This document shows positions 4,180 through 64,000 of a stretch of 64,000 nucleotides of DNA, piece after piece; the first letter of the stretch is position 1; each line of letters opens with the position of its first letter. Position numbers and translations under genes: made by a program. The notes under the pieces were generated by a model. It saw nothing but the letters and a program-made list of their open reading frames with translations. It was not told the origin of the DNA and searched no databases. Source of the DNA: Nemertoderma westbladi (lineage: Eukaryota > Animalia > Xenacoelomorpha); assembly GCA_032718475.1 (NCBI GenBank), contig JAUCBJ010000648.1, forward strand, positions 1-64,000, read 5' to 3'.

Positions 4180-4191
4180 CATAATAACCAC
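4180..4191 (-). promoter_or_regulatory. E1 putative self-complementary primer-binding site (GTGGTTATTATG on minus strand)
   Basis: Plus 4180-4191 cataataaccac is followed by TG at 4192; its exact reverse complement gtggttattatg is at 4866-4877. Confidence 0.65.
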
Positions 4192-5140
4192 TGTAGAATA
4201 CGTATCAAATTATCGCAATACGTATCAGTTTCGAAAGAAAACAAAACAATAAACCGGTCTATATAAAGCTCAACAAGGAAACTCCAGTTGGTGAGGAATC
4301 CCTGCCTGCCTGCTAATATTATCAACCTTTAATACAATTTACTAGCGTGATGGCCCCTTATCCACCACGTATACTGCAAGCTAAACTGCCGATAGGTAAG
4401 GGTTGTATCGAGTACAATTTATAAAATATAAACAACAATTTATCTTAAATTTTCCCACAAAACAAATTCTGTATATTTCTATACACCGCACCGCTGTCGA
4501 CGGTAGTAAAAGGAAGGAAACTATACGCAATACTAAACCTGGTTATCTCGTGGATGAATTTGCCGATATTCTCTAATTTTCACTTCTACTCTGTAAAGTA
4601 ACTGTAAGAGTGTCAAACTAATGATTGTGAGAGAGAGATGATTAGCTATCTAAATACCCAAATACATTTATTTCTGGACAGTGGATAATGCTGTAGCTGA
4701 AACTTGGTATATAAGCTTACTCACCCCCAACAAAGTCAAAATAATTTAAGATGAAGTGAAATGAATATTAGTATCCCAATGAGACCCAAACGTAAGCCAA
4801 ACGATGAGCGCTGATACCAAATATATATCAACACTCTCCCCCCTTTGCACTTCCGTGCTGCCTGTGTGGTTATTATGATGGGGTATCCCGGTTCAATTTG
4901 GCCCAAACCCAAGTACAGGAAATAGTTAAAGCACCAGTTAACCTAATGGAATTGTGTACATCAACCTAATGAGACCCCCCTCCCCTTGTGGCTTGCCCAG
5001 TCCAACTTACTGCCCTTATGTTTCACTCGTGTTGTGTAACATCATCCATCCATTTTGGGCTCCTGCAGTCGGCCGGTACGGCTCGACCTCCTCACTCCAT
5101 AATTATATTAGACGGAGAATGCGCCTCTCATGTTAAAACA
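4192..5140 (-). repeat. E1 5' LTR (inferred; partner LTR outside the window)
   Basis: TG start at 4192 is defined by analogy with the E2/E3 PBS geometry; minus-strand AATAAA near 4666-4671; outer end uncertain. Confidence 0.5.
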
Positions 5141-12660: not shown

Positions 12661-12711
12661 AGAAAATGGGATTTAATTCTATAAAATATAAAAAATCACA
12701 GTTTCTAAAAT

Positions 12712-21865: not shown

Positions 21866-21877
21866 TATAACTGTTAC
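21866..21877 (-). promoter_or_regulatory. E2 self-complementary primer-binding site (GTAACAGTTATA on minus strand)
   Basis: Abuts the 5' LTR end at 21878; no TGG; plus tataactgttac is the reverse complement of LTR segment 22618-22629. Confidence 0.8.
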
Positions 21878-23074
21878 TGTTCGCGCTTTTAAGACCTTTA
21901 GCAGTTTAACCTGCCAAATTTATATGTCTTTTAGATTATAAATCGACTTTAGCCTATGACAAGTATTTGATACAAATAAACACTACATTAGCCGAAGCCA
22001 GCCTAGTGCGCGACCATTCACCCGCTGGATATACCCGGGAAAGGATTCGGATGACTTGACCTTATTGCGTTGTAAGCCTACTGTATTATTCGATTGATCG
22101 TTAATATATAATCTCTGACAAATATTATTCACTTTCGGGAAATATTAACAGTTCCTTTAGGACGTGGCGCTCTAATTATGTAAACAGAGTTATGACTTAT
22201 ACTAAACACAACGGTATGGCTTATGATTCACGTATAAGGCGCATTCTTTAGGAGATGCTTAGTTACCAGTCACACTCATGCACACTATCGCACAATGCTG
22301 CATACCAATCTGCCGACCTTCACTAATTTTAGTCACATATAAAGAGAACAGCAATTGACCCATGTAGTGCCTATGAAATAGCATTAGATTCACTCCAAAA
22401 CCAATATAATATGAGTCGCAATTGCTATATGTAACCTGTCTCTTACCTTCAGTATATCAAGAAGATGGGGTTTTATGATTCTTTCTCGATATTCTCCAAA
22501 TATAATAATATTCCATCAACTGATACAATTAATAACCGACAGTAAATAGCAGTAAAATAATGCGGTGAAAGGCCATAATGCATTGAGTGCACGGTGGTAC
22601 CGTAAGGTACCGTACCGGTAACAGTTATACGTTCCTGTAATCAAGCCGTTCTAATGTTTGGCTAAAGTCTGAAACACAGAATTATTCCACAGCCGATGTT
22701 GTGGCATCAGGAAAAAGGTAAACATAAACCATAATGCTTTGCGCGATTTCCCGGAGGCCCCTGCACAAAAGCAAGAGAATCGCTCTGATTGGTTGAGTGA
22801 TTGCACAGAGTGGGCCTGAACAAAGAAAGTTCCACGAGTACACCAAATCAGCTGATAGATGTCGTAATCTAAACTACACTGTGTAGAGAGTATTATGGCG
22901 TATTGCGACATAGGATTGCTAGTTATGTCCGCCAAAGTACACATACATAAAAATAGCTTTTTATGTCCACTAAAATACCGGTACAGTAAGGAAACGACTT
23001 TTATGTCCGTTAAAACATCTAAAGAGTACTTCGCGGGGAAAAAATGACTAGCCAATCCCGCAAAAGCCTTTACA
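21878..23074 (-). repeat. E2 5' LTR
   Basis: Direct repeat of 11454-12652; followed by TSD TCTGG. Confidence 0.95.
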
Positions 23075-29164: not shown

Positions 29165-29489
29165 GGGTAATATTTACAGTAGTTTATTGTTACTTACACT
29201 GAACTATTAACTCAATAGTGAATGACTCCAGTTCTACTAACAGTGATGGAGGGTAATATTTACAGTAGTTTATTGTTACTTACACTGAACTATTAACTCA
29301 ATACTGAATGACTCCTGTTCTACTAACAGTGATGGAGGGTAATATTTACAGTAGTTTATTGTTACTTACACTGAACTATTAACTCAATAGTGAATGACTC
29401 CTGTTCTACTAACAGTGATGGAGGGTAATATTTACAGTAGTTTAATGTTACTTACACTGAACTATTAACTCAATATTGAATGACTCCGT
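29165..29489. repeat. 86-bp tandem repeat duplicating the exon 2 3' end and splice donor (three extra copies in the intron)
   Basis: gggtaatatttacagtag..cttacactgaactattaactcaata at 29165, 29251, 29337 and 29423. Confidence 0.9.
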
Positions 29490-35236: not shown

Positions 35237-35990
35237 GTTCCTTTGTCTGCCGCTAGAGGGCGAATTGACAGAAACGTAGAAGTACTGTAGCTGTACTTAT
35301 AGAACTAACCATCAGATTCATCTGAAATTTGTTAGGAGTGACCTATGAGCATTGCTTAAGTAGAAATTATACACAAAGACAGATTGAAATAAACGTAGAA
35401 GTAGCTGTACTTATAGAACTAACCATCAGATTCATTTGAAATTTGTTAGGAGTGACCTACAGGGTATGAGCATTGCTGAATAAGAAATAATTCTAAATAA
35501 GTACAGACTTCTACAGTTCCTCTGTCTGCCGCTACGGGGCGAATTCGCAGAAACATAATAGTAGCTATAATAGAACCAATCAGATTCAACTGAAAGTTGG
35601 AGTAGTGACCTACGATAATTGCTTAAATAGAACTGGTAGAGACAAGCTAACGAAGTAGTATACCAAATTTCGAGTACTCGGATTACATCTTTCTCGGGTT
35701 AACCTAGGTTAACCGAGTCTCGTGCTGCGCGAAGGCCCCACGAACGTGTATCCAATGGAATCACTTGAAACGTTAACCATAATGGCCGTGGAGTCTCTCT
35801 ACATTTAATACCCTTTCTTTCCCCATTTTGGACTTCACTCTTTGTCATTTACCGGCTTGGCTTCCTCCCTCAGAATGCCTCCAGCCGTCTCAGAAACCCA
35901 AGTCTACAGTCTGATGCTAACTGTGACTGATCGTATGTAACTAAATATATTGTAACATAATGTAACCTTTAGTGGATATCTCAAACTTAC

Positions 35991-36840
35991 ATTCAACTAC
36001 GATCGTAGTGGTACAGGATTTATCATCTTCTATAGCTCTATTCCTCGCCTTACATATAAACTCTGACCCATTATCTCCACGACTTAGATCTTTATTTATC
36101 CTCAGTGTATCTCCTGGTTCAGTTACGACTCCACCAATAGGAACTCCGATACTATCGTTACTATACCAACTCCATCTAGAATCTCCTGATGTACTTCCAG
36201 CTACCGGTGCCGGTACCCAATCCGATAACTTACAGTTTAATGTAGCTGAACTGCCTTCTATATAAGTACAACTCGGTAAGCAGCTACACTTTGGTTTAGT
36301 ATCAGCTTTACATTGGGTAAGAGGTATTATAAGTGGGTAAGTAGTCTGATCGGATATGGCCGGGTTGATTTGGAGTTCCACTACTCTATTCTCTTTAATC
36401 CAATATTTTATATTTATCTCAAATTCCTCCGGTATAGATTCAATAACAGGAGGATTCAACCCAACAGTTATATATCCTTCAGCTCCGGCTGTGTTGCTAC
36501 TTATATATTCTGTTGTATTCCATCTAACGCAAGGGATTTTAGTTTTATTGATGTTACAAACATCTCCGTTGGAGTTCGCTACATTATTCACACGTATGCT
36601 GTTACTATTATCATCCGTAGCAGTAACAGATAATTCCATTACATCGGAAATAGTTTCCGTTATTAATTCGCTAACCTCTTCAATAACAAAATCAACTTTT
36701 ACTCTAATACTATTTCTTTCTTCTTTAAATAAACATTCTCTAGTAAATTTAGATCCATCTGGTTCAACTAGTTTATATCCATTATACTTGAACCCCAAAA
36801 TAACATCAGTTAGTATCAGTAATATCAGTAATGATTTCAT
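35991..36840 (-). CDS. Receptor copy B exon 1: signal peptide, N-terminal domain, Ig domain (the four exons total 3003 nt = 1000 aa)
   Basis: MKSLLILLILTDVILG signal; donor T/GTAAGT; all four exons splice in frame via GT-AG phase-1 introns. Confidence 0.88.
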
Positions 36841-37000
36841 TGTTATTGGGGCAAAGTTTGTTGTTGAATTATAACAACTTATGTTTAAAATTGTGTCGGC
36901 ATTACAAAATTTATAGATTGAGTGCCGTTTTTAATCAATACAAAATATAAAATTATATATAAAAGATATTTAAATTATAAACTCAAACTCTATAATCCAC

Positions 37001-45001: not shown

Positions 45002-45849
45002 TGTTATTGAGACTAACACTTACAGATTAAATATCCTCACGACATTTTAACCTGTTTTTATATGATCAACTTCATACGCTGTATTTTCTTTGGACTAATT
45101 AATTATTATGTAAACTAAATTACTTAACATATCATTATTATCTTACGTATTTATTCACAATCTCTATATAATCTACTAATAGTCAATAAATACATACATA
45201 TCCATGGCTGACTTGTAGTAACATATAAAGATGAACTGTTGAATAGACATCTTTCTAATAGATCACATCTTACTACTTACTATATTGGGTGAATTCTGTG
45301 GTATTTCTGTGATTAAATGTCAATGCTGAGATTGGACGATAAAAAGTGGATGTTATGGATATATTTAAGCTGAAATGTGAAAGTTGCCTTGTGGACAACA
45401 GATTTGATTTAAAGGCCGAAGTAGTCAGTACATTAGTATACCCATTATATGCTTCACTAATTAAATAAAAATACTTTATTTTTAAATGTTTTAACAAAAT
45501 ATTTCAACCAAAATACAACAAGTAATATAAACAATAAACACGGAAGCTATAAAATATATTATAGATGAACTTTTGTTTGCCAAGTTTTATATTAAATTCT
45601 GGGGCCGAATGTAACTTCCTCTTTGGCATGAATGGCAGGGAAATAGTAACAATATGGTAGATTTATGTTGAGTCCCCGATTGGAAGAAATCCCTAATGTT
45701 CTACAACTTCGGCGATTTGAAAGAAATAATGAGAGAGAAAATATTATGTTACAGAATAATAATTTTAAAATAAAAAAGATACCAAATATAATACAAATAA
45801 GGATAGTAATATTTACTGACAGTTGTTACCCGTTATTAACAGTTGTCCA

Positions 45850-47753
45850 TGAAGCGAAGAGACGTACCTGATATCCTGCAATATCCTACTGTAAAGTTTG
45901 TGAATCAAAACATAATCCGACCTTCTCACCAAAACAGTAAACTCTAAGTAAGCAAATCTATTGCAGTATCGGTCTCTTATAACCGGTGAGGCAGAAAACA
46001 GTCTACGAACGGACAAACTTCGATAAAACAAAATCCCGCGCAGCGAATCCTAAAATCGGGCTGACTCACTGACGGACTAAGGGCGCTCGTATACTTTGCC
46101 GCGGTGTGATTTATATGTGGGTGAGAGATAGAGGCGCTAGCTAGGTGTCTAACTAGCGGGCAAAGTGCAGTACGGACAAAAATTATTTTATATATTTTGA
46201 GGTGTAAATAATTCCTAACGCGTGTGTGTCTTGATTCTAACAGTCAAAATCAGTTTTAGATCCTTCATATATATAATTACTGGGTCCGGTGTACATTTTA
46301 CAAATATTCTAATTTTGTAGCTTGTAGGTCCAATACTCACGAATGACAAGGCTCCTTCCCCTTTTGTGTATTTCCAGGACTCAAATTCAGGCATAAGGTT
46401 AATACTACGCCCAGAATTCGGCAATTTAATTTACCAGGTCCCTAATACTAAGAAGAAATGTGTTAGTTTACTACAGTAGGCGTACAGTTACAAAATAGCT
46501 AGCCTGGCGTCCTATCTAGAATTTTGGTTGCCTAGGTGGGCACGGCAACTTCCTATCAGAATGTCGGCGGGGACACGGTAGATGTTAGTATCCCTAATAG
46601 CCTCAATTTATATGCGCCCAGCAGTAAACTGCCCTACCGCCTGAACGGTACAATCCCAATTCAGGTAAAAACACAGTAACCCTTCCTGGCCTACAAGTTC
46701 TAATGCAAATGGACACCGTTGTACTACAAACGGCCACCGACGCACCTATACCTGGCAAATGAGTTAGGCGTACAGCTTGCTGCACCCTACTAATGTGTAT
46801 GCCTTGTACTGGTGTGCCTGCGTTCTATCTGTGTACTAGTATCTCTCTGCCTGATCTCTTCCTCCCCCCGTAGGAATATGAAGGTCTACTGTGGGTTTTT
46901 CTGAATTAAGACAGTACAGTCCCTAAATGTAATTTTTAGCGCACAGCGTGTCAGTACCTCTACCTTCGATCTTAGGTCTTACACTTAGGTAACGAGGCAT
47001 CGAATGCTGTCTAACCTTTCAGGCGATGGGCGAATAACTAAGAATGGGTATTGCGGGTTGTCTCCTTCTACATTCCTCCGATGTTCCCGTCTATTGCCGC
47101 GGTCCGATGTCTAGCCTGCCATCTGTCTCTCAGTTGTGTTCACCGTGGTGAAACATAGTAAAAGCAGATGTAACAAATACTTTCTAACTTTATTACAAAT
47201 AAACAATAACTAATATACAATAAATGTAACAAGACGTAGTAAGAAGTGAATGATAATTGAAGTTTAAGATAAGTTTAAGTTTAAGATTGAAGAGTGAAGA
47301 TTAAGATAACTAATGAACAAATCGCACCCTTTTATAGCAAATTAGTGCTGCTAACAATCTAGATAAATCTCGATTGTTCTATGAGTTCTACTAGGTTTTT
47401 AAAGATAATCATTGGTCCAGCAAACACGTATCTTGCACGACATTGGTTACTATCTAATGACTGCAATCGCATTGGTTAATCTACCTTAAGCAGATACAAT
47501 TAAATCGTAGCGGTTAATTCAAATGAGTTGAAACTTAGCACAAAAAATAATTCACACTTGCTAGGATTCGAACTCGATACCTACTACACGATTTTCTAAC
47601 GCATAACCGACTGAGCTACTGAACCACTTAAACAATGTTACACAAATAGATATAGTAAATGCAAATGAGGACTTAATGTAATCTTTATAGCAAATTAATT
47701 CGAACAAAATAAAATTTTGAAAATCCACGGCTTTATGGGGATATAATTCTATA
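45850..47753 (-). repeat. E3 3' LTR (inner boundary inferred from the PPT)
   Basis: Matches 62644-64000 up to 47206; PPT-like GGAGCGG (plus ccgctcc 47754-47760, as in E2) marks the likely start, where TG appears mutated to TA; CCAAT boxes, TATAAAA (47331-47337) and AATAAA (about 47189) on the minus strand. Confidence 0.75.
47542..47625 (-). ncRNA. tRNA-like Pol III cassette (A box, B box, T6 terminator) in the probable U3 of E3
   Basis: GGTTCAG-TAGCTCAGTCGG-..-GAGTTCGAATCC-..TTTTTT; no intact cloverleaf seen. Confidence 0.6.
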
Positions 47754-48339
47754 CCGCTCCATGAAAACAGGATATTATCGTGAATAAAATATACGGTTTT
47801 CACCAATACTAAATCAAATTATGGAATACTTGGGACGTACTTACATATTTACAAATTAAATCTCAACAATAATACCTTTACATAATAATTCGATACAAAT
47901 AATTACAAATTCAAACTTTACGTATTTAAGGCTTTATTAAGTAGGTACAATATAAATCTAAATTAAATTCACCAATATAAATCTATTGCATCTCAAATAT
48001 TGCATAAACTCAAACAATCACAAGTACAAATGCTACTTAAATATAAAACAAATTGCATAAGTTCGGAATAATTTCGAATGAAATCACAAGAAAGGCTCAC
48101 AAGTCTTCCATCTGCTCTTGCCTTTTATTTACTGCGAATACCAGTACTGCTTCTTTATAAAATATAAATTGCATAATATTCGAAACAATAAATTGCGTAA
48201 GTTTGGAATGACTACAAATATAACACTTTCTAAATATAAATCTTTCTAAATATAAATTCCTTCTAAATATAAATTCCTTCTAAATATAAATTCCTTTTAA
48301 ATTTCATAAAATTGGAACAATACAAAATACATAAATTTG

Positions 48340-48575
48340 GAACAATATAAATTGCATAAATTTGGAACAATATAAATTGCATAAATTTAGAACAATATAA
48401 ATTGCATAAATTTAGAACAATATAAATTGCATAAATTTAGAACAATATAAATTGCATAAATTTAGAACAATATAAATTGCATAAATTTAGAACAATATAA
48501 ATTGCATAAATTTAGAACAATATAAATTGCATAAATTTAGAACAATATAAACTGCATAAATTTAGAACAATATAA
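48340..48575. repeat. 25-bp minisatellite in the E3 3' UTR
   Basis: About 9 copies of aacaatataaattgcataaatttag. Confidence 0.9.
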
Positions 48576-48691
48576 ACTTTAAATTTAATCATAAGAAAGG
48601 CTCACGAGTCTTCCGTCCATTCCTTCCTTCCCACTTTACATAAGTTCTTACGAGTTTGGAATAATTAGTCCTTTCAAGTATAACACTTTAT

Positions 48692-51496
48692 TTATCGTTT
48701 TGTGGATTGAGCACGGCCGCGCCCTCGAAAACTGCGTACAGGCGACTTGGCTCGTACTACAGGGCTTATGGGGCGAGTCCCTGGTTTACCTTGGACGTTG
48801 GGAGACGGTGCGACCATTTCCTCACAAGCTCGCCTTCTAGTAATCCCAAATCCTCGTCCGACTCCTCGTGACCGACTAGTTGTATCCACTGTTGGCAAAA
48901 CGTCTGGGAACGCGCGGGAAGCGGACGACGCAGACCCAAGAGAAACTTGCGCCCCCCTTTGATCGACTGGTATGTGTCCTAATCCTACTTGCGGTTCTCT
49001 GGGAAGTGACACCGTATCCCGAGTAACGCGAATGGTCGGTTCATATCCCCTTCGTTCTTCAACATTTATAGTTCTCTTTAGTTGTTGGCTCACTTTCTGA
49101 ACCCTTATAATCCTATTCTGTCCGTCCTCCCGAGGGTGACGTGCAGACGGCGCAACCGGAGTAGCTGGTATGTTGGTCGCCTCTAGGATCTCCTCTTCCT
49201 CGAATACGCTCGCTCGTATACGTTTGTGATAGAATGCGGCTCGGTATGCCCATGCGAAGGTTAACCAAGCTCCCTTGTTCCGCTTTTCTGTTCGGAAACG
49301 ATCGAATTCACCATATGGGATACGATTGACGACTTTCTGGAAGTTCCATGTATTCTTATTATCGGGATGAATCTGTAGCAAATATTCGCGCACAACTCTG
49401 AATCCACTATCATGACGCAAAATATCGACTACCTCGATTAGTTCGTCATATTGTGGCATAGCGGAGATATATCCTTCCGACATCATAGTTTGAGGGTTTA
49501 CCGCCCAAAAATCCAAGATGTGCCCTCATTGGGAATCGTCTTCTTTGCGCCGATACATGTTCGTCAGCCAAATCTTCCCAATCATCAAACAGTTTTCGCA
49601 TTAATTTTACAGATTCGTGTTCGTATGGTATGTCTCGCAGTTGGCATTCAGATGCTCGATGTCCCTTTATATTGCAATATGTGCATTGAGCCATAAATCT
49701 CCAGCAAGTATAAAATGTATGGAACCCTTGATCTCCACACCATCCACAAATCAGTTGAGTCGTAGTAATGTGTTTTCCACTGCATTTCGTCGAATGATGT
49801 CCAGCGATGCCACATTTACCACACATCGTATTGGCAGGGTACCACACTCGCTCATATATGAGATCTCCAATGGGTCGAGCGCTTCCTCCCACACTATAGT
49901 CATAATCGTCTGGATCAATAGGTTGGTATGTTTCAGAAGGTTGTATGCAAACTACAGCATCTGTTGCTTCAAGTTGACGAATCTCCGTCTGAGATTTCTT
50001 CGGGAGGTTCCTTTCAATCTCAAGAAGTTCCTCTAGAGGATCATCGATGGTCGTCGTTACGTCGGAATCATCACCTAAGTGACCGATAGGCGCGCGCGTC
50101 TGCCGTGATTCGTCGATAACCTCCACGATACGTTCTCCTTCATAAGGTAACATTGTAAACATAGATGGTCTTTCGATAAGAGATCCCGCACAGCGAAGAT
50201 ACACGTCTCGAAATATACTAAATCCTGCCCGAGTAAAGGCGTTGCACTGAGCGTCGGAATTGTAGAAGGGTTCGAGAAATCGTCTAAACATGTCGGTGTG
50301 AATTCTCCCTTCCGCGTAGAACGTATGATCTTCTCCGAGGCAAAGTGGATGTCGTTTTAGAGTCCGAGACACAATGTCGGCGATCAAGCAAACATTCACC
50401 GATGACTCTATCGCTAAATAATATTGTAGTACTGCTCTTGGAGGTGAAGTAATAGCCCAATATACGCATCCTCTCCATTTAAGCTGTGATTCAAACTCAT
50501 TTATATCTGGAGTATCACCTTCTCCATACGTTTCGATATACTTTGTTCTTTTACTTTCCTTGTAATCCCAATTGAACAATAAGTAGGAAATGTATCCAGT
50601 TCCGGTCTTCTGAGTATCATACTCCCGGAAATATCCTTGTTCTATAGACCATAGTATAAGAGGTCGGGTGTCGACGTAAGGTGTCGGTAATCGGTCGTCA
50701 CTGTCCGACATGCCAGCAAAGTTGCTAAGTAAATCCTCTCTAACTCCTGATCCAATCTTTACAACGGTTTTATCTAAAATGATATTTCTGACCATCTTCG
50801 GTAACATCCTAGCGTCGATGTTGCAGGCTTGGTCCATCTTCTTTACTATATTAGTGATGAGATGGTGCCGCTTGGTATTTCCTGGAGGTATCGGCATTCG
50901 CTTGTCGCTCCTTTGTCTACTGAAACGTGCAAAACTCCGTCTGCCGCTCTAATTTGTATAGTCTTGGAAGTCAGACTCTGTTGATGGCTGCCGCCCTCGT
51001 TGTCATAAAACATGTAACCGTTTTCCTGAAACGATCTAAACGTTCTGTTCCATTCGTCCAATAATTCTTCCGAAGGTTGCCAAATCTTCTCTATGTCCTT
51101 CTCGTCCTCGAAGCGAATGATTTTACCTTGCCAGTTCGTAGCGATGTCTGTATCCGACTCAAAGGTTCCTGTTCCGATCCACAAACGAATTGTTCTGGTC
51201 AGATATCCTCTTAAGTTACTCGGAGCTATATCAGCGCCAGCTCTATCCAGTTCCCTAAAGTCTTGAATATGAGGCGGAACATTATGCAGGACCTTTTGCG
51301 TAATATGTCTACGTAAATCATATATCTTAACCATATTGCTTAGAACAACTGCAGGAAGAAACTCTAAGTTTGAAATGATTTCCGGATGATCCACAATAGG
51401 TATTTCATACGTCGTATCTTGTCGAACTGGTATACTAATAGGGAAATTGAGTGTCGTACTCAATGGTTTCGTAGTCGAAGTACTATGTGGTTGCAT
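48692..51496 (-). pseudogene. E3 accessory ORF: DEDDy-type 3'-5' exonuclease, three CCHC zinc knuckles and a basic/RG tail (two 1-bp frameshifts)
   Basis: ExoI MFYDNEG, TIQIR..LHVF, ExoII LPKMVRNIILDKTVVKIGSGVREDL, YVDT, ExoIII YLAIE; knuckles CGKCGIAGHHSTKC, CGWCGDQGFHTFYTC, CTYCNIKGHRASEC; indels in T-runs at about 50924 and 49509. Confidence 0.75.
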
Positions 51497-51555
51497 TTCT
51501 CTTGTCCTTTCCGGGGATGCAATCTGTAGCCTCTGAATAACGTTTTGGGCAAAGT

Positions 51556-52413
51556 TTATACTTTCGAAACTTCCGGTGTCATCTCCTTAGCTGAAGTTTG
51601 GTCGTGTGACGTCCAATGGTAAGGTAGGCTCGCGAGTCTTCCGCCCCATTCTTCCATCTCACCTTCCTCGAAAGCCTTATAGGCTCTGTATAGGCTAAGA
51701 GCTTCTTTCTTTTCGCGGGTTGACTGAGTCACCTCTTCCAGCGAAAGTTCAAACGCATCGGGTTCAACAATCTTAGGTGGACAAACGACAATTTCTCCCG
51801 CCTTTGGTCCACACATAGCAAATGAATGATACGGATTCGATAAAGGATACCCTCCTTTGTGGTAGCGTAGTTGTTGATGGTTCGAACACCTCGCCAATAT
51901 CGGTTCGGGATTTTCCTTAATCAAACGCATCGGAATCGCCTTTTGTTGTTCGCGCATACAAGCACCACATTGATAATAAAGTTTGTAAACTGAAAAGGCT
52001 TCCTTCGTTTCTCTATCGTCTCCTCGAGTTCGTCTGTAAAGATGCATTCCATCGAATTCATCGCGTACCGCAGGCATAGGTTCATGTGCCTTCAGGTATT
52101 GCATGGTATGATACAAACGACTAATTTCGGTGTCGGGGTCTTCACTGATATCTCCCGTATCACATAAAGCATCGTACGGATAAAGTTCATTGAAGGTTTT
52201 ACGCAAACTTTCGATTCTTTGGTTTAGAGCGTTCTGCCTCCTCTTTAATACTGTCGAGTCGTATTTAGTTTTAGCAAGTTTTGCTGTACTTTCTGATAAA
52301 TCCTTTATTCCGAATATGGTGTATTCCTTTGCACCGAATCTTTCGAATGGAGCTGCTGCTTCCTCTTGAATATCGTATCCCCATCTCGGCTCTCCATGTA
52401 TCCCTTTCGCCAT
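51556..52413 (-). CDS. E3 accessory ORF of unknown function with a CxxC..CxxH motif; possibly the N-terminus of the exonuclease polyprotein
   Basis: ATG 52413 (MAKGIHG); RLYHTMQY..YYQCGAC..RCSNH aligns with E2 RLYSTMMY..YYCDEC..RCAKH. Confidence 0.7.
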   Translation of the reverse strand: MAKGIHGEPRWGYDIQEEAAAPFERFGAKEYTIFGIKDLSESTAKLAKTKYDSTVLKRRQNALNQRIESLRKTFNELYPYDALCDTGDISEDPDTEISRLYHTMQYLKAHEPMPAVRDEFDGMHLYRRTRGDDRETKEAFSVYKLYYQCGACMREQQKAIPMRLIKENPEPILARCSNHQQLRYHKGGYPLSNPYHSFAMCGPKAGEIVVCPPKIVEPDAFELSLEEVTQSTREKKEALSLYRAYKAFEEGEMEEWGGRLASLPYHWTSHDQTSAKEMTPEVSKV

Positions 52414-53046
52414 TATTGGAAGTATAGTTACATAATAATTACTACTAGAGGGAATACAACAGAGTTTATTGTTAGTTGTGAGGAGATGTGAGAGTTTTCG
52501 TCTGCCCTTTTGGCTCGACAACGCTCTAACCTCCTACCCATAGCCTAAGATCTAGGGTTTCTTTAATGACATACTGTTTCTTATCTAAAATTTTTTGCCG
52601 AAATAAAAACGAATTTGGGCTAAACTGGGCTAACTTTGATCCCAAACTATTATCAGAAAATAAGCAATCGAGAGTTAGTAATAAATATAGGGAAGTCTAT
52701 TTGTTGACGTAACTTTTGAAACAAGACCGTGTAAAATTTTAATTTTAAAAAGAAAGGCTCGCGAGTCTTCCGTTCTCTTGTTTCTTTAATTTTAAGTCCC
52801 ACCCGACTGTACCCTGAAATCTATTCACTGGAGAAAATTTTTAAAAATTTTTCAAATCCAAATGGATTGTCTAAAATTTCGAAAATGTCTCAATATTGTG
52901 AGTTCCAAGTAGAATTCCATTTCTTATACCTACAAATCCCGCTCCTATGTGACACATAAGGGTACTACCCTCAATGTTCACATATAAAGACAATGGAATT
53001 CTACCGCTGTGTACAGGTACGTGGAAATCTATTTGTAAACTCCTTA

Positions 53047-56000
53047 CTATTTACTAACATTAGTTGGAGACTTGTAATCTCCAGACTCGTTTCGAGTCTC
53101 TTCAAGAAGTACGAGACATTGGGTCGGTATGTCTACTGTACGACCGTCAATTGCCCGTACCGTCACAGTTCTTGTCACTCCATCCATAGATGGATGTGTG
53201 TCTAAAATAACACCTGTTATCCAGAAGTGTCTTTTTAAATTCACTTCTGCCAACAGCACGTGATCTCCCGCTCTTAAAGCGCGAGTATTGTTGTACCAAG
53301 TAGTTCTGGCAGAAATAGAGGGCAAATAATGATTTTGCCATATTTCCCAGAATTTGTTAGCCAGTAGTTGCGTGATTTTCCACGCTTTTCTACCATAGCT
53401 GTCGCCTTCTATTGGAATAGAAATAGGCATTAATGAAGTCGGTGCCTGCATTAGCAGGTGTGCAGGTGTTAAAGCAAACTGGGATTGTTTGTCATCGGGT
53501 ACTAATACTATTGGTCTAGTATTTAGTATTGCCTCGATTTCAACAAACAATGTTGTCAGTTGGTCGTCTGTCAAGATGTGGTTTACTGGAATTACTTTCG
53601 CCATGGCTGTTTTTATAGATCTAATCAATCTCTCCCAGACTCCGCCTCTCCATGGACTATCTGGAGGATTAAACTTCCAAACAATTTTGTAAGGACATAG
53701 TTCGTTTGAGATTTGATCATGATCTAATTTCTTAAAGGCTCTAGCAATTTCATTTCGAGCACCAACAAAGTTTGTACCTTGGTCTGAGTACAAGCATTTT
53801 ACTAGTCCGCGTCTAGCGATAAATCGCCGCAATGCTAGTATAAAAGCGTTGGTGGAAAGATCCATCACACGTTCAATATGAACTGCCCTACTGGACATGC
53901 ATGTGAAAATCAGTCCCCAGCGTTTTACTAGTATACGTCCACGTTTCGTATGTATGGGACCAAAGCAGTCAATTCCAGTCTCTGTGAAAGGTGGTCTGAA
54001 TGCTTGTAGTCGTGCTTGTGGAAGTTCACTCATTTCTTGGGTACTTATTCTAGAATGTACCTTTTTACAAATAATACACATGCGCGTCACCGAACTTAGC
54101 GCTTTACTGGGTCTAATTAATACAAATCTTGTACGTAAGTAGGAAAGACAGTGGTGTCTTCCAGCGTGTTTCAGATGTAAATGTGCGTCCAGTATCATTG
54201 CACGTTGTAATTCGTGATGTTGTGGTATTATTATTGGGTACCTAAAATCAGTATTAAAGTCTATGTTTTGAAGCCGAGATTTATGACAAATTAAGCCATT
54301 ATAAATTATCGGACTCCAACTCAATATTGGTGGCGACTTGATTGGTTGACCTTGACTTATGGATGTGAATTCGTGTGCGAAATATTCCAATTGGTAATGG
54401 CGAATTAATTTAATTTCACATCTGTCAATCTCAGTCAATGTGAGTCGACGTATAAAGTCGCGTTTGCCTTTAACGTATTGTACAAAACGTACAATCCACG
54501 CTAATTTTCGGCACTCATTTGTCCAAGAATCTGTCAGATGTACAATACGGTCGACGTAAGTATTTATGACGTCATCAGGTAAGTCAATGATGAATTTTGA
54601 AGGTTTTGTTTTACTAGATGGGCCCACGGGTCCGCCGGTAGGTATTCCCTTGTTGACTGTTGATCCGTCCGGGTCTACGAGTAATTTGTCCCTCTTCGTC
54701 TTCTTACCTTGATTGTCAGTATCTTGTGAGTCGATCCCAGGTCTCACCGTAGGTTGTATGGTTGGTATGTCTCTTGAGCGTAAAGTAACACCTGTATTTA
54801 CATTTGCGTAGGTACTACCCACATCTGTAATACATGAGGTTTCACTGTGCTTATGGTTACTCAAGAGTGTCAAATTTGGTATTTTGTCAATAGAAGGCCG
54901 CTCCATTAGGGAAACTGCGGCTTTACTATGTGTTAGTATGTTACTAGTGTCCGGTAGAACATCTTGTGAAATGTCTGGTAAAATGTTTCGCAGAACATCC
55001 GGCGAAACGTCTAGTGACAGTCTGACAAAACGTCTGGTTGACAGTCTGGTAATGTGTCTGGTTTATCGTCTGGCGATACATCTGGTTGACCGTCTGGTAA
55101 CGTGTCTGGTTGACCGTCTGGCGATACGTCTGGTGTAGAAAGGCTCGCAAGTCTTCCGGCCTTAACTTTGTAAGTTATATTTTTCCATTTCGCCTTTGGT
55201 TTTTTCTTGAGTTTCGCCGTTGTCTTTTTCTTTGCTTTCCCTTTCTTTGGCTTTTTAATTTCGGCGTCCTTAGGGATAGTGTTAGACTTGTTATCGTATA
55301 GTGGCGGCCAATGTTGTGTTGCTCTTTGTAAGAATTGTGGTCCGTGTTGCCAAAATTTCTTGTTCTCCGGTTTACAGAATTCCTCGGGCATCATTCCTCG
55401 CGACGCAATATCAGCTGGATTTTGTGGTCCGGGACAATGTCGCCAATCTTCTTTTATTGAACGGTCTAGTATTTCTGCACGACGATTAGCTACAAATGTC
55501 TTAAATTCAAGTGTGTCGTTGTTTATATAAAATAAAACTAACGTCGCGTCAGTCCAATAAAATATCTGTAAACTTGACTGTAGTTCCGTCTGTATAAGGT
55601 TTACAATGGTGGTTGACAGAGTTGCGGCTTGTAGCTCAGCGCGTGGTGTCGTCATGTACTTAGTAGGCATGGTCTTAGCCTTGGAAGTAATGAGCGAAAC
55701 ATCAAACTCATCTGAGTCTACTTGTCTGCGCAAATACGCATGTCACTCCAAAGCCGTTGTCACTGGCGTCGGAAAAACAATGTAATTCTAAGTTGTCAGG
55801 AAATGTCGTCTGTAATGGAAAGTACACCCGGGGTATGGAATAATCCTCTAGCGAAGATAATTGCGCCTCCCAAGTTTTCCATAAGACTACTTGTTCTGAT
55901 GAGATCGGTTCGTCCCATGTCAGTCCATCTTTCCAAATACTGCGCATGTATATTCTTGCTTGCAGTATTATTGGGCTGATAAAACCTAATGGATCGAACA

Positions 56001-59000
56001 GTCTACTTAGTTTTGACAAGCAAGACCTCTTTGTCAGAGAATCTCCTTGAGCGTCCAGTCTTACCTTCACTCGAAAGTTGTCTGTGTTCGGGTCCCAAAA
56101 TAGTCCCAACACCTTTGTCGTCGGTAGTGGTTCAAATTCCAAGTCAATGTCACCACCCCCACGTTCAGTCGTTTCGAATTAATTTACTAATTCGGTACTG
56201 TTCGAAGCAAACTTGGTGAGGTTAAAACCTCCGCCAGCTAAACAGTCCCGTAATTGATGTGCTACTGTAATGGCACGTTCTACTGTGTCGCAAATTTGTA
56301 ATCCATCATCAACGTAAAAGTCTCGTTCTATTACTTGGATTACCTCTGGGTCATACTTATGTTTCTGATCCCTAGCGGTCTGCTTTAGGGTGTACATAGT
56401 GCAATTTGGGCTGTCTCTGGTACCGAATACGCGAACTTGCATTTGGTAAGTCGCCGGTGGTTGACTTAAATCTCCATCCGGGTACCAGAGGAACCTCAAA
56501 CTGTCTCTGTCTCGCTCTAACGCTCGCACCTGGTGAAACATGGCTTCGACGTCGCAAGTAAATGCTACTTGGCGTTGACGGAAGCGCATAATCACCCCCA
56601 TGAGATAATTATTCATGTTTGGTCCATCCATCAACTCCGTATTGAGAGACATTCCCTCAAACAGAGCCGCGCAGTCATTTACTACACATACCTTGTCTGG
56701 TTTGTCGGGGTGTCTCACGTAGTGATGTGGCAAATAGTATGTCTGGTCTGTCACAATCTCTGGGTTTGTCATCCTGATAGCGTACCCTTTCGTCAAATAC
56801 GTCTCCATCTGAGTATTATACTGCAGATGGGCTTTCTCGTCCTTTAATAAACGTTGTCGTATTGAGTTTAAACGTCTTAAGGCTAGCGGATAATTGTTTA
56901 TAAGTTTAGGACGTTGGTTACGCCATAACATCCCTACCTCATAATGTCCGTCTTTAGTCTGATGGATAGTATCTTCCATGATCTTTAAGGATTGTTTTTC
57001 TTGTTCCGACATGCATGGTTCGTAACTACCAGGTTCGGCTGTGTCTTGTTCCAACCACTTGATAGTTTTCTCTGTTAATTCTTTGTCCAAAGCAGCTTGT
57101 TCCACTTGACAATTTCTTAATGTGTCGACATCGACAGGTGTTGATAAGGTTATTGGTTGAGGTAGACTCGCAAGCCTTCCGGCGTTATCATCTATCGTTG
57201 ATGGATCCTCTGCCTGATGTGTCTCCTTCTTAATCTCTAAACTTACCTCTTTGTACAGTGGTTTCTGCTCCCTTTGACTTGTTGTACTTGCCACACATGT
57301 CGTACTTGTCACTTTGTCGTGTTTTGTCGAGTTTCGGCGTGTAGTATAGTCAATGTCGTTCGAAAAAGAATGAGTCAAAGTTGTAGTTAATAAACTACAT
57401 GTACTTTGCACATCATCTTCCTCGTCACTTATATCTAGTGTGCGCACAGGCGCTCGAGTATACCACCCTATCGGCGTTCTGCAGGCGTATGCGTTTCCTG
57501 CTACGACTACCGATGGTCTGGTTTCCCACACTTGATGTAAGTTGAATTGGTCTGTCCCAATCAGCATTGCTACTGACCTATAATTAACAGGACATTCAGG
57601 TACACCAAGGTGCCTAAAATACTTACGGTCCTCTAAGGATTGTTCTGGCACTGGACCCAGTAGGTTACTAAAGTCCTTAGTGGCTGCAAAGGTTAAATCC
57701 TTAAAGGGTAACAAAGACCTCTCCTTTTCGCTATGTTGCGATTTCGGAAGAAGTGTGTCTAAGTTCAACTTAACTCGTGTCACTGGTATTGCACGTTGTC
57801 CATGCATACTACTTACAGTATATCTGACGTTCTTACCTTGTCGAAGATCCGTCACGACGTCAGCTACCTTCTCATCCACATAGCTGTGAGATGAGGCTGA
57901 ATCTAAAATAGCGTAGATCCGTTTGCTCCCTTTGGTGCCCGTAATCTTAACAGGAATTACGCTAAATCCCTTCAGCTGATCAGGCGTCAGAAGTGCAATC
58001 GATGGTTGTTCGTCTCCATCTAAGTATGTGTCATCGTCTTCTGATTCTTCATCTGAAGACCCGGATTGTTCTGGGAAACAATCCCAAATATGCGTCACAA
58101 AGGTTGGTGTTGTTTTTGGTTCTCGCGTCTTGTACGCAGTGTTGCACTTCGCTGCTGCTTCTGGGTGTTCCCTGGTGAAGCATTTTGTCGGTGTATGACT
58201 ATCGGTGTGGAGCAAACCGTCATGGTTGCGTCTACAGGAAGGACAGGTGTCCGTATTTGTGCAATCTTTACGGACATGTCCGTGTTGAGTACACCTCCAA
58301 CAAGAATCCAATGATCGTATCTGTAGTCTTCGTTCTTCTGAGTTCAACTCACGAAATAGTCGACATCCCCTTAACTTGTGACTAGTGTGTCGCTTACCTA
58401 TCCGCTCGCAGTATTGACAACCGCTGAAGTCGGCATTTAGTTGCTGCCTAGTCTGTTTGATTCCAATGGGTGCGGACACGTTATAACCATCAGAAAATTG
58501 TCGGGTTTCCGTCGGTGTAGCGTATGTGACCGTCCTCGTGGATGTCGTCTGTGGTTTTTGTCGGTTGGTCGATGGCAAAGTTATTCTTTCGGCTATAATG
58601 TGTTGATCCGTGTAGTTCGAACGAGTCTCCACTACTGCCTCCCTAGATATTAATAGGTACACATCTTCCAATCTTAAAAATCCACCTGTTTCTTCTCGCT
58701 GATACTCGATCTTTCTCCACTCCCTACGAAGTCGATGGTGTAATCTCCCTATTATTTTTAATAGGACTGTAGGAGTGTTTCCGTAATCAAGTTGTCCAAT
58801 CGACCGTAATGTCTTAATAGCGTTCTTGATTTCGTCAGCTAATTTAAGTAAGTCCACGGGTTTCGTAATGGCCCCTCCTTTACAGAGTTCCTCTATTACT
58901 GACTTGGCCATACTTACTGTACCTCCATAAATGGAAGTTAAGCGATCGTGTTCTAATTCGAAGGCGTCTGGTACACCGACGAAAGTCTCTGCTAGACGTT

Positions 59001-61791
59001 TTGGTTCTCCCGTCAGCATTTGAAGCAGGTAGTTAAACTTTTCCCTCGATGTAAAAGCGCATGCCGCAATTTGAGATTCGATGTAATCCACGAAGGTATG
59101 CTAATGTTTTGAGTTTCCGGAGAACTTTGGTGGTTGCTGCGCCGGTAATCCTTGTCTGGCTGCGAACTTAGCTATCTCTTCTGCAACATTCAAAGTTTCG
59201 CGTCCCTGGGTAACAATAGAGTTCGTTTTTCCCTGTCCAGGACGTCTTTTCTCATACTCTACATTCCCTGAAAGTACCATCCTTTGCGGATGCTTCGGGT
59301 GTCTAGTATGTTCGAATTCCGTGTTTCTCGAACTATCAGTTTGAACTTCCTCTAAGCGTTCCTTGATCTGGGCCAACTTGTTGACAACTGGTCGCATTAT
59401 GTCGGCTAATTGTTGCGTACTAATTGCGTCCGTTGGTTGTAACGCTTTCTGTGTTGGTGTATTTTGTGGAGGATTATCTATAAAGGAATTAGTTGAACGC
59501 TCGCGTTTGCATTCATCGGCCGCTCCTGTTCTAAACACCTCGCGTTCCGGGTAATCCGATTCGCTCAAAGTACTACTATCACCTGGATACGGTGGCCGAC
59601 GTGCTCGCGTCCGTTGGGTTGTCCGAATTCTAACATTCCGTTTCGAAACATCGTCTACTGGTCTCCGTTGTTCGGTAGGCTCACAAGTCTTCCTTGAAGT
59701 CGTAGATTGCGATGTAAACTGATTAAACGGTCGCGTGTCTACTGGTCTCCGTTGTTCGGTAGGCTCACAAGTCTTCCTCGAAGTCGTAGATTGCAATGTA
59801 AACTGATTAAACGGTCGCGTGTCTACTGGTCTCCGTTGTTCGGTAGGCTCACAAGTCTTCCTCGAAGTCGTAGATTGCGATGTAAACTGATTAAACGGTC
59901 GCGTGTCTACTGGTCTCCGTTGTTCGGTAGGCTCACAAGTCTTCCTCGAAGTCGTAGATTGCGATGTAAACTGATTAAACGGTCGCGTGTCTACTGGTCT
60001 CCGTTGTTCGGTAGGCTCACAAGTCTTCCTCGAAGTCGTAGATTGCGATGTAAACTGAATTTGTGGTCGTGTGTTGGCGTTTGAGTCTAACGGCCTTGAA
60101 GGCCTGAATACGATTGGGTTTGCGTAGTGTGTCACAGGTTTAGGTGTCGAAGGTTGACTCACCTGTTTAGTCGTCATTAATGTAGGTCCGACTAATAAAC
60201 TACTACGATCCGTTATTGGCGGATTACTTACCTTGACCTTTGGAATAGGCGATGACGTTGCTCTTGGCGGTACAAACTTGTCCGGAATAACATACCTGTG
60301 TTCCGTCGCATTGTGTATAGGAGATATACTGCTACTACCAGCAATCGAAACAGGTCCTTTATTCGTAATTGGTGCGAACATCGGAGTTACTTGAGGAAAT
60401 CGTTGACATAAGTCTTTAACCAATTCCTGTTCTCGCTCAGGTGCTCCTACGCTTCCTTCCTTCATTCGTTCCTGAATTTGACGATGTCTTACCTCTATCC
60501 GGTCTAGATCGTGTCCGTCTTGAAGATCCAGATCTTCTTTGGCATTGGCTAATTCCCTCGCCTTCTTTTCGAGTTCGAAATGAAGTTTAACTTCCTTCTC
60601 GCGTTGTTCCGTCTGTTGTTGTTGCGCCTCGAACTCTGCTAGTCGTATAGCTGATTGAGCCTTTATCTGCCGTTTTCTCAACTCGGCTCGGGCTTCCGAA
60701 ACTCGCTTTTGTTCTTCTAACTCTGCTGCTTGTCGTTCCAACTCAGCTGTTGCTGCTCGTTGCGCTAACTCAGCTGCCGCTGTTTGCTGTGCTATTTCTA
60801 GCTCTAGCCTTTCCATCTCAGCTGCTTCTAGTTCGGCTGCTTCTTGTAGATGAGAGATTCTCGCAACATTTGCGACGCGTAGTTTCTCTTCCTCTACAGC
60901 TGCTTGTACAGTTAATAATTGAGTTTGTTCCTCAATTTCTCGTTGTTGTCTGTAGTACTGTTGTTGCTGTCGAGAAATTTCTGACGTTACCATACTTACC
61001 TCGCCAATTTCGCTGCGAATACTCACCAATGATTGATCCAGTATTCCCGGTGCCAGTTCGATTTGTACGGGTGAAGTTTCCCTCGTATCTTCCGGCACGG
61101 TTTCCAAATCGCCGACGTCTTCGCCGCACATACGTAAGTGATCTGTCAGATGTTTCAATTGTCCATCCAGTCTGTACAGTTCCTGTTCTTCCTCGGGTTG
61201 TAATAATTCGTCAGAAACTGACTCACCTAACAACTGGTCCGCTTGTTCTTGTTGTATCAATCTAACGGCCGTCTTAAACTGAATTAATTTCTCCCTGGCG
61301 ATTATTAATTTCTCGAGGATTCTGAACTGAGTGTCCGCGTCCTGCCTTTGTCTAGCTAGATCTTGTAGACTGATCAGGTTATCTACGGACTTATGTACTT
61401 TACTTTTTACTCTAACCTGTAAGGTGTAGAACTCGAACCGGGACATCGGAGCGGTCAACTCGTTTAATATGCGTTGGCCTTCTCCAATACTCCTGGTGAT
61501 ATGCGCCATGTATCCTCCGACGCTTCTAACTACGCTCTCTTGGCTTCCTACTGAACTTACCATGTCCGTTTCCCTGTGTCTAGGTTGCGGGACCGTTAGA
61601 AAATCCTCAGTCCTGCCGTCGCCTCGTACTACGGCATCCGGTACTCCCGTTAGATGTACTGGTGACGCGCACGGTGTAGGTTCGGTAGGCTCGCGAGTCT
61701 TCCCCTGTGGTTCTTCCGCTACTGACTTATCCGCGTCACATGAGTCATAGTCGGTAGGTGTATTCTTCGTATAGTCCTGTTTGTCACTCAT
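53047..61791 (-). pseudogene. pol: E3 gag-pol polyprotein (BEL/Pao) with 2 nonsense codons (59101, 56179) and 2 frameshifts (about 55740, 55013)
   Basis: DUF1759-like gag and triple knuckle; protease ILDSAS; RT YYLPHH..DVEAMFHQV..FG..FYVDD; RNase H FSDAS, PRAEL, WTD, NPADIASRG; integrase HH-CC, IDCFGP, SDQGTNF, WERLI; DUF5641-like tail. Confidence 0.95.
59650..60070. repeat. 84-bp coding tandem repeat (5 copies) in E3 gag
   Basis: Encodes FTSQSTTSRKTCEPTEQRRPVDTRPFNQ. Confidence 0.95.
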
Positions 61792-62556
61792 TTCGGTAGT
61801 TGTAAGTCAAGTAAAGTGAGTGTCAAAGTATCAAACTTACCGTATTTATATCTAAACGGTATTAATTACAGTCATATAAAATTAGCCTACCGGCCGATTT
61901 TATAGCAAATAGATAAAATTAGCCTAGCGGCCAATTTTACAACAAATAAATGTCACGGAGTCGGTATATAATAAAATTAGCCTACCAGCCAATTTTATAA
62001 CAAATAAAATCGGATAACGATATACGTTATCAAAAGGTAAATCAAACACAAATAATACGGACTAATTCAGCAATAAACAAAGAAATCGTACGGAATGCAT
62101 AAATACTTGAGACAGTGGAACCCACAATAATTTTAACTAATACGGTAATGCCTAACTGATTTATGCAACTTTTCGAACTCACCCCCTCCAATAATTCTCC
62201 AGAAAAACAGATTCCCAGATACAAACCGGATGTGAACCTTTCCGTTTCCAGCGTTGCGGACGAAGTGCGATTTTCCCAACCAAAATTGTTGAGTTATCTA
62301 TCTCCCAAACTTGCGAAACACGGTCTTGCTCTCGTTACAGTCTAGAAATGAGCTCTGAATCCTGAAAAACAAAAGAGTTAGCACCGGTATTTTACCGGTT
62401 TTTTAAACACCGGTATTCAATTCCAAATATTTTACACGCGGTTCAAATCAAAATTTTATTTCAAAAATTAGCACTTAGCTAATCAAATACAAATTTTTAC
62501 CTCAAAATACAAATTTTCAAATAACTTAAGTCCTACTGAACCGTAGTTCAGTAAAA

Positions 62557-62643
62557 CATATTCCTACTGAATTAGGAAATATGTTAAATAATACCATATT
62601 CCTACTGAATTAGGAAATATGTTAAATAATACCATATTCCTAC
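62557..62643 (-). promoter_or_regulatory. E3 self-complementary PBS (GTAGGAATATG, 62633-62643), triplicated by a 38-bp tandem repeat
   Basis: catattcctactgaa at 62557, 62595 and 62633; exact reverse complement at 63664-63674 (and 46870-46880). Confidence 0.8.
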
Positions 62644-64000
62644 TGAAGCGAAGAGACGTACCTGATATCCTGCAATATCCTACTGTAAAGTTTGTGAATC
62701 AAAACATAATCCGACCTTCTCACCAAAACAGTAAACTCTAAGTAAGCAAATCTATTGCAGTATCGGTCTCTTATAACCGGTGAGGCAGAAAACAGTCTAC
62801 GAACAGACAAACTTCGATAAAACAAAATCCCGCGCAGCGAATCCTAAAATCGGGCTGACTCACTGACGGACTAAGGGCGCTCGTATACTTTGCCGCGGTG
62901 TGATTTATATGTGGGTGAGAGATAGAGGCGCTAGCTAGGTGTCTAACTAGCGGGCAAAGTGCAGTACGGACAAAAATTATTTTATATATTTTGAGGTGTA
63001 AATAATTCCTAACGCATGTGTGTTTTGATTCTAACAGTCAAAATCAGTTTTAGATCCTTCATATATATAATTACTGGGTCCGGTGTACATTTTACAAATA
63101 TTCTAATTTTATAGCTTGTAGGTCCAATACTCACGAATGACAAGGCTCCTTCCCCTTTTGTGTATTTCCAGGACTCAAATTCAGGCATAAGGTTAATACT
63201 ACGCCCAGAATTCGGCAATTTAATTTACCAGGTCCCTAATACTAAGAAGAAATGTGTTAGTTTACTACAGTAGGCGTACAGTTACAAAATAGCTAGCCTG
63301 GTGTCCTATCTAGAATTTTGGTTGCCTAGGTGGGCACGGCAACTTCCTATCAGAATGTCGGCGGGGACACGGTAGATGTTAGTATCCCTAATAGCCTCAA
63401 TTTATATGCGCCTAGCAGTAAACTGCCCTACCGCCTGAACGGTACAATCCCAATTCAGGTAAAAACACAGTAACCCTTCCTGGCCTACAAGTTCTAATGC
63501 AAATGGACACCGTTGTACTACAAACGGCCACCGACGCACCTATACCTGGCAAATGAGTTAGGCGTACAGCTTGCTGCACCCTACTAATGTGTATGCCTTG
63601 TACTGGTGTGCCTGCGTTCTATCTGTGTACTAGTATCTCTCTGCCTGATCTCTTCCTCCCCCCGTAGGAATATGAAGGTCTACTGTGGGTTTTTCTGAAT
63701 TAAGACAGTACAGTCCCTAAATGTAATTTTTAGCGCACAGCGTGTCAGTACCTCTACCTTCGATCTTAGGTCTTACACTTAGGTAACGAGGCATCGAACG
63801 CTGTCTAACCTTTCAGGCGATGGGCGAATAACTAAGAATGGGTATTGCGGGTTGTCTCCTTCTACATTCCTCCGATGTTCCCGTCTATTGCCGCGGTCCG
63901 ATGTCTAGCCTGCCATCTGTCTCTCAGTTGTGTTCACCGTGGTGAAACATAGTAAAAGCAGATGTAACAAATACTTTCTAACTTTATTACAAATAAACAA
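62644..64000 (-). repeat. E3 5' LTR (truncated by the window edge)
   Basis: Direct repeat of 45850-47206. Confidence 0.95.

Follow-up and report, generated by a model that had tools for sequence, protein, structure and literature searches.

The question raised by this locus is what primes reverse transcription in a long terminal repeat (LTR) retrotransposon whose primer-binding site (PBS) lacks the TGG of a tRNA-type site and instead matches a segment of the element's own LTR. The locus lies in a 64,000-nucleotide stretch of the Nemertoderma westbladi genome (contig JAUCBJ010000648.1, positions 1 to 64,000; hereafter the window), which carries the elements E1, E2 and E3. The element in question is E3.

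A BEL/Pao element with an atypical primer site

62644..64000, minus strand: 5′ LTR of E3, from LTR-pair comparison; continues past the window end
45850..47753, minus strand: 3′ LTR of E3, about 1.9 kb; end from LTR-pair comparison, start at 47753 putative
47754..47767, minus strand: candidate polypurine tract (PPT) of E3, TTTTCATGGAGCGG, proposed from its likeness to the PPT of E2
53047..61806, minus strand: broken BEL/Pao gag-pol of E3 in five frames (59101-61806, 56179-59100, 55708-56178, 55011-55742, 53047-55062), from Pfam domains
62633..62643, minus strand: PBS of E3, GTAGGAATATG, flush with the LTR end, no TGG
63664..63674, minus strand: partner of the PBS in the 5′ LTR (candidate self-primer), CATATTCCTAC, 1,020 nt before the LTR end; exact complement, duplex of -13.7 kcal/mol
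46870..46880, minus strand: the partner segment in the 3′ LTR, exact complement of GTAGGAATATG

Judged by its predicted polyprotein, E3 is a young BEL/Pao (Belpaoviridae) LTR retrotransposon of at least 18 kb on the minus strand. Its frames encode, in this order, DUF1759, Peptidase_A17 (twice; E 7e-27), Integrase_H2C2 and DUF5641 (E 7e-19), which is the BEL/Pao set; E3 shares this domain order with the described Belpaoviridae, as well as an animal host and, in its neighbor E2, a 5-bp target site duplication (TSD). For the integrase region there are 1,482 homologues; the top-ranking ones are 35-40% identical and carry the same Pfam families, and those with a named source are mostly animal. A search of viral contigs found no relative. 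The aligned LTR segments (45850-47206 and 62644-64000) are 99.5% identical, with 7 differences in 1,357 nt, all of them transitions. Because the coding region contains stops and frame breaks, this particular copy is unlikely to be autonomous. Contigs from four DNA runs (X1-X4; three samples, three studies) fill 29-30 of 30 bins across E3 and contain many variants, and the E3 family is therefore a large, high-copy one.

The upstream boundary of the LTR, and with it the length of about 1.9 kb, is suggested by likeness to E2: TTTTCATGGAGCGG (47767-47754) agrees in 12 of 14 letters with TTTTCTGGGAGCGG, which abuts the TGT start of the E2 LTR. The E3 LTR start placed in this way reads TA, and the left end of the element lies beyond the window, whereas E2 shows TGT..ACA and a 5-bp TSD. 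Several U5 ends of the family, too, appear to finish in TA rather than CA in contigs over 62500-62720. A G-rich run after the partner was considered as the true PPT and start of the E3 LTR and was set aside, although not firmly: the E2 partner lies 445 nt inside a TSD-fixed LTR, the run pairs with U5, and 47767 is the better PPT match.

According to the ICTV profile, members of the family have an 18-nt PBS that matches tRNA-Arg or tRNA-Gly, LTRs between 0.2 and 1.2 kb long and genomes between 4.2 and 10 kb; the profile describes BEL/Pao replication as poorly understood and tRNA-primed (PMC8742986). The BEL/Pao element Achilles of the olive fly has a PBS for tRNA-Tyr (available part of PMC4580426). 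E3 differs from these described elements in its size and LTR length (at least 1,357 nt, probably about 1.9 kb), both outside the ICTV ranges, in four additional 3′ frames and in its primer site, a self-complementary 11-mer that starts with GTAGG and has no TGG at or near the LTR end, in place of the 18-nt site complementary to a host tRNA 3′ end. This site is a departure from the profile and not a loss of BEL/Pao membership, since membership rests on the polyprotein.

The additional frames (48692-52533, minus strand; 246-500 aa) lie 3′ of the integrase and have no Pfam match. The 500-aa frame (49446-50948) contains three CX2CX4HX4C-like knuckles by eye and matches nothing in Pfam or the PDB; for the 325-aa frame, the Atlas leads all score below 0.9. 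A single 1,887-nt contig of run X4 spans 50470-52354. The in-frame stops of E1-E3 were also considered as one conserved read-through site, an idea that was dropped because the stop follows DUF1759 in E1 and precedes it in E2 and E3.

Self-complementary primer sites in E3, its neighbors and outside relatives

According to the original prediction, GTAGGAATATG directly follows the LTR and pairs with 63674-63664, and the exact 11-nt match bears this out. In the window, the 11-mer occurs exactly five times, three times in sense orientation on the minus strand (62643-62633, 62605-62595 and 62567-62557) and twice as its complement, once per LTR (63674-63664 and 46880-46870). The first sense copy abuts the LTR end (...CGCTTCA at 62644) with zero gap; the match is 11 nt long at offset 0 and at most 7 nt when shifted into the LTR, and when the LTR is shuffled with its dinucleotides preserved, only 6 of 20,000 rounds reach 11 nt. 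Across the four DNA runs, no PBS variant at 3% or more is listed, the sole substitution at this level within 62500-62720 being at 62528. A contig joint 63642-63727 in X1 and X2 shows that some copies lack the partner.

The neighboring elements offer the same layout in different letters.

11454-12652 and 21878-23074, minus strand: LTRs of E2, TGT..ACA, with CCAGA on both outer sides (5-bp TSD)
21866..21877, minus strand: PBS of E2, GTAACAGTTATA, flush with the end of the E2 5′ LTR; 6 of 20,000 shuffles reach 12 nt
22618..22629, minus strand: partner of the E2 PBS, TATAACTGTTAC, 445 nt inside the fully defined LTR; exact 12-nt complement
21860-21838, minus strand: 8-bp leader hairpin just 3′ of the E2 PBS
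4180..4191, minus strand: candidate PBS of E1, GTGGTTATTATG, after ...TCTACA; LTR end not independently fixed
4866..4877, minus strand: candidate partner of the E1 PBS, CATAATAACCAC, with AATAAA 194 nt further on

E2 and E3 are only 21% identical in protein over 607 aa of Gag-protease, E1 and E3 44% over 316 aa. In none of 6 comparisons do the LTRs of E1, E2 and E3 align better than shuffles, for which reason short motifs common to them were dropped. Their primer sites all begin with GT. The E1 layout is suggestive only, because its LTR end is not independently fixed and the site is one of 27 candidates, chosen after the fact. E2 (11454-23074) is itself young, with LTRs 99.1% identical; it is probably internally deleted, since it has no match to the integrase of E3, and its leader contains a 290-bp duplication (21012-21594). 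An AG dinucleotide stands exactly 5 nt before the partner in both E3 (63669-63684) and E2 (22624-22637).

Could such complementarity arise by chance? The unmasked window-wide null is lax, with 184 of 8,944 positions giving inverted matches of at least 11 nt, but this reflects the inverted satellites left in it; after masking of satellites, 5 of 3,018 CA-positions reach 11 nt, and two of these five are the E1 and E2 primer sites (the E3 site lies outside the scan range). Although the E1 site was picked afterwards, those of E3 and E2 each reach 6 in 20,000 at ends fixed beforehand, and the outside relatives described below exceed their decoys. We regard chance as a negligible explanation.

Rather, the matches point to the mode of priming used by the yeast element Tf1, in which the RNA's initial 11 bases anneal to the PBS and cleavage by RNase H falls between bases 11 and 12 (PMC7175516, in part). 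We propose, at a probability of roughly 0.68, that E3 primes itself in cis in a Tf1-like manner, with its own RNA and no tRNA. The E3 RNA would fold back so that the 11-nt PBS pairs exactly with the segment of its own LTR, presumably within the particle; it would be cut just 3′ of the partner, probably by the reverse transcriptase/RNase H of the element, and the cut piece would then prime minus-strand DNA as in Tf1. Polyadenylation would have to occur downstream of the partner, because strand transfer after a cut in cis needs it.

Among 80 metagenomic BEL/Pao loci, 44 have enough upstream DNA to be scanned for the same arrangement. A complement of at least 11 nt is present in 10 of the 44, versus 3 and 6 for two decoy strands. 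The separation is clearer for complements that form only across a canonical GT..YAG junction with a pyrimidine tract in the LTR: nine of the 44 loci have one of 11-14 nt (two of them, L050 and L052, being one family), whereas decoys give 0-3 loci over 20 shuffle rounds. Similar to E1-E3, eight of these nine sites start with GT. The first exon supplies just 4-9 nt of the primer, which makes an internal primer likely in these spliced relatives, as read from their sequence. Consistent with the cis model, A(A/T)TAAA follows 8-51 nt past the partner in 8 of 10 spliced rows, where the model needs it. One further locus, L002, has a contiguous 11-mer partner. A second class of sites begins with TTCA rather than GT and comprises L002 as well as L033 and L045, in which an intron splits the partner. 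In E1 and E2, a strong donor-like GT(A/G)AG 154-184 nt past the start of the partner hints at possible splicing around the primer. Self-priming of E3, as originally proposed, is thus supported by a pairing that recurs with other letters in E2, probably in E1, and in these nine relatives.

Not every relative fits. L012 and L028 have defined LTR ends with neither a flush TGG nor a contiguous or spliced partner, which counts against the cis model, and L007, L023, L040 and L058 yielded nothing. Eight loci read as tRNA-type from the motif TGGTCC..GA(G/A)CCGG, which we take to be the label of tRNA-Tyr. A quick tree of 80 integrase rows separates the 11 loci labelled self-complementary from 8 of the 9 rows labelled tRNA-type, with labels assigned in this analysis, two of them doubtful, 59 rows unlabelled and E2 absent for want of an integrase match. 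The E3 integrase forms a long branch of unsure placement that is drawn with the tRNA-type rows, which leaves any link of E3 to the spliced relatives tentative; this, like the stops and frame breaks of E3 and the copies without a partner, speaks against self-priming.

The pairing might instead be structural, serving packaging, dimerization or translation control, while the actual primer is a host RNA that has escaped recognition, for instance an internal fragment of a tRNA. The description of the family as tRNA-primed (PMC8742986) and half-tRNA priming in copia lineages (PMC6317226, in part) would fit this reading. However, the helix ends exactly at the first base after the LTR in E3, in E2 and in L050, whose LTR end is likewise fixed independently, and a structural helix need not do so; moreover, the letters of the site change from family to family and the self-match persists, something that a fixed host RNA would not call for. 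We consider this explanation improbable.

How E3 compares with known self-primers can be stated more closely. The 11-nt PBS flush with the LTR, exactly complementary to an LTR segment, is one of the marks of Tf1-type priming, and E3 shares it with Tf1 and Tf2 of Schizosaccharomyces pombe, Tj1 of S. japonicus and the Tf1/sushi and Tcn1 groups, which have an 11-12 nt PBS of this kind and use no tRNA (PMC7175516 and PMC4600332, in the parts available). Tj1 and Tf2 resemble Tf1 in self-priming (PMC4600332 and PMC5341516, likewise in part). Unlike these Ty3/gypsy chromoviruses, E3 has BEL/Pao-specific domains and belongs to another superfamily; it would work like Tf1 but is not a member of the Tf1/sushi group. 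The distance also differs, in that 675-1,020 nt separate primer and PBS in E1-E3, and the spliced relatives build the primer across a junction. Outside the Tf1 group, the plant Tcn1 and TAR lineages are predicted self-primers, and self-priming in the TAR/Houba/Osr-1 copia lineage is, as for E3, a prediction from sequence, although these are Ty1/copia elements of plants (PMC6317226, as excerpted). Because this lineage lies outside the Tf1 group, self-priming can arise more than once. Titles and abstract openings, with subscription journals, older papers, GyDB and Repbase mostly uncovered, contained no report of self-priming in BEL/Pao; the accessible portions of PMC554778 and PMC3118150 hold no PBS passage and that of PMC8220671 a generic one only. 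If the proposal is true, BEL/Pao would add a third LTR superfamily to those that prime without a tRNA. It would also explain why many animal BEL/Pao elements have no recognisable PBS, and would affect tools that require one.

The start of the RNA and the release of the primer

47327..47477, minus strand: three CCAAT boxes (595-535 nt upstream of the partner) and TATAAAA (456 nt upstream), motif matches only
47189..47194, minus strand (also 63988-63983): AATAAA, 314 nt upstream of the partner
63649..63656, minus strand: purine run directly 3′ of the partner, which may form a second helix with the U5 end (duplex fold; P about 0.39 in the full fold)
62650..62656, minus strand: TCTCTTC near the U5 end, possible mate in the second helix; core kept in 11 of 22 loose ends (22 of 33 listed)
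62534..62553, minus strand: leader hairpin TACTGAAC-TACG-GTTCAGTA, an 8-bp stem with a UNCG-type loop, located 3′ of the innermost PBS

In Tf1 the primer is the 5′ end of the RNA, whereas in E3 two lines of evidence diverge: the motifs suggest a start upstream of the partner, and folding favors one at the partner itself. A CCAAT/TATAAAA/AATAAA set had been noted about 300-600 nt upstream of the partner, and it is indeed present, at 595-535, 456 and 314 nt. As sequence motifs, these elements argue for an RNA start near 47305. They weigh against the cis model, as do the 440 nt that separate the E3 partner from the nearest canonical poly(A) hexamer on its downstream side and the lack of any AATAAA or ATTAAA in the E2 LTR.

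Folding, which over 800-1,500 nt is rough, gives the opposite indication. For an E3 RNA starting at the partner, the partner is predicted to pair with the three PBS copies with P 0.75, 0.04 and 0.19 (0.98 summed), the flush copy taking the 0.75; the corresponding values are 0.98 in E2 and 1.00 in E1. With additional upstream RNA, the flush pair of E3 holds at 0.86-0.91 for 5-20 nt; 40 nt lower it to 0.11, and 80, 160 and 326 nt each bring it down to 0.00. A start one base inside the partner moves the pairing to the innermost PBS copy (0.95). The E2 pair tolerates more, at 0.95-0.99 with 10-160 nt, but drops to 0.17 at 300 nt, 0.07 from the LTR start and 0.22 one base inside; in E1 the pair stays at 0.90 or above in 7 of 7 start positions. 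The model thus predicts the E3 pair only for RNA starts no more than about 20 nt from the primer, and the loss of the pair with longer RNAs, together with the sensitivity to trimming by one base, counts against cis priming. We lean towards a 5′ end at the partner or a few tens of bases from it; a 5′ end about 425 nt upstream, which would leave a 5′ flap or an intron, has somewhat less than an even chance.

An upstream start would suit priming by the element's own RNA in trans. Here the RNA would begin near 47305 and R would end after the upstream AATAAA, placing the partner within a 1.3-kb U5; the primer would come by cleavage from one of the two packaged RNAs, or from a separate processed RNA, and the second, uncut RNA would serve as template. 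The textbook order of the three CCAAT boxes, TATAAAA and AATAAA agrees with this arrangement, in which it also matters that a cis cut in the long RNA would sever the new DNA from R and that the cis pair is not predicted for such an RNA. Against it, the E2 LTR lacks the hexamer and E1 has its AATAAA 194 nt downstream of the partner; 8 of 10 spliced rows likewise carry the signal just downstream, and two of these relatives (L018 and L076) have an upstream AATAAA as well, so that an upstream hexamer need not be used. We judge priming in trans unlikely, and self-priming by the element's own RNA, cis and trans taken together, highly probable.

A wider reading, tentative and on balance doubtful, is that a broad animal branch of BEL/Pao has replaced the tRNA by a primer from the element's own RNA, one other than the RNA 5′ end. 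Small elements would splice this primer together in the LTR, and giants such as E3 would have it preformed, hundreds of bases into the transcript, where its release would need a cut (leaving a long 5′ flap if made in cis, or else made in the dimer partner RNA) unlike any described priming route.

Cis self-priming, the reading we prefer, may involve more than the primer duplex. Pairing of the purine run with TCTCTTC could give E3 a further helix next to this duplex; the kept core could reflect such pairing or, equally, recognition by the integrase. Leader hairpins next to the PBS are present in E3 and E2 and not clear in E1. Judging by titles of Lin and Levin from 1997/1998, Tf1 is said to have a further helix beside its primer duplex. 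For E3, self-priming makes a base-exact prediction, namely an RNA end at 63664 and cDNA bearing CAUAUUCCUAC, in a family that is high-copy and young.

The BEL-type element Cer7 of C. elegans has been proposed to supply its own primer through a self-encoded tRNA-like gene. In the presumed U3 of E3, a tRNA-like stretch (47564-47625, minus strand) has A-box/B-box-like motifs followed by a T run; it does not end in a complement of the PBS. ARAGORN called no tRNA in the window, and Rfam returned for 45800-48800 only a chance U6 match (E 0.68). The stretch may be what remains of a SINE, or may be a Pol III promoter.

The 38-bp array at the PBS/U5 junction

62557..62647, minus strand: 38-bp array, 2.4 copies, 100% match, with three PBS copies (62643-62633, 62605-62595, 62567-62557), each after TTCA; rare variant in the family
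62573..62621, minus strand: two imperfect local anti-PBS copies, CATATTTCCTA (62621-62611 and 62583-62573), one per full unit

The original prediction described a 38-bp repeat that triplicates the PBS together with the last 4 nt of the LTR, each unit holding an imperfect complement, and suggested that alternative folds could expose or hide the primer site. The description is accurate: the repeat occupies 62557-62647, each PBS follows TTCA, and each full unit contains CATATTTCCTA and folds to a hairpin of -8.0 kcal/mol. The array is also real, since contigs of runs X1 and X3, from two studies, match it exactly.

The proposed switch, however, finds no support when repeat number is compared among E3 copies in contigs of the DNA runs. 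In X1-X3, contig depths add up to about 14,000-89,000 across the leader and the innermost PBS and to about 32,000-202,000 across 62668-62707, but to only 39-605 across 62588-62643; such depth is no copy number, yet the step of about 100-fold recurs in three runs. A joint 62556-62633, which skips the 76 extra bases and leaves a single PBS, occurs in X2 and X3. With the array spacer about 100-fold under its flanks and such joints present, most copies in the E3 family have one PBS and a variable U5 tip, the triplicate is rare, and triplication does not characterize the family. At the end of the E3 LTR, the last 24 nt (62644-62667; summed depth 129-2,377) vary far more than the sequence on either side.

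Neither E1 nor E2 carries such an array, and in 4 of 4 folds of an E3 RNA starting 0-20 nt before the partner, the flush PBS prefers the long-range partner to the local hairpin (P 0.75-0.91), while the two extra copies mostly pair with the local anti-PBS units. Although the units do fold and short PBS duplications recur, a selected switch is very unlikely. Among loose ends (22 of 33 listed), 6 of 22 run from the innermost PBS straight into other U5 ends, and three of these six carry a different, shorter PBS duplication. We infer that PBS/U5 duplications arise repeatedly as copying errors, and the triplication is probably a by-product of error-prone copying at this junction in a few copies and not a regulatory device. 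[quoted passage not shown] The triplication carries little weight for the finding of self-priming.

Elsewhere in the window, frames with Ig and fn3 domains (6964-7884, 27974-28786 and 29448-30134, all minus strand) are probably host-gene exons or repeated host-gene fragments; 6820-7867 is 85% like 35794-36841. A 15/17-bp satellite forms a large inverted repeat at 36970-39521.
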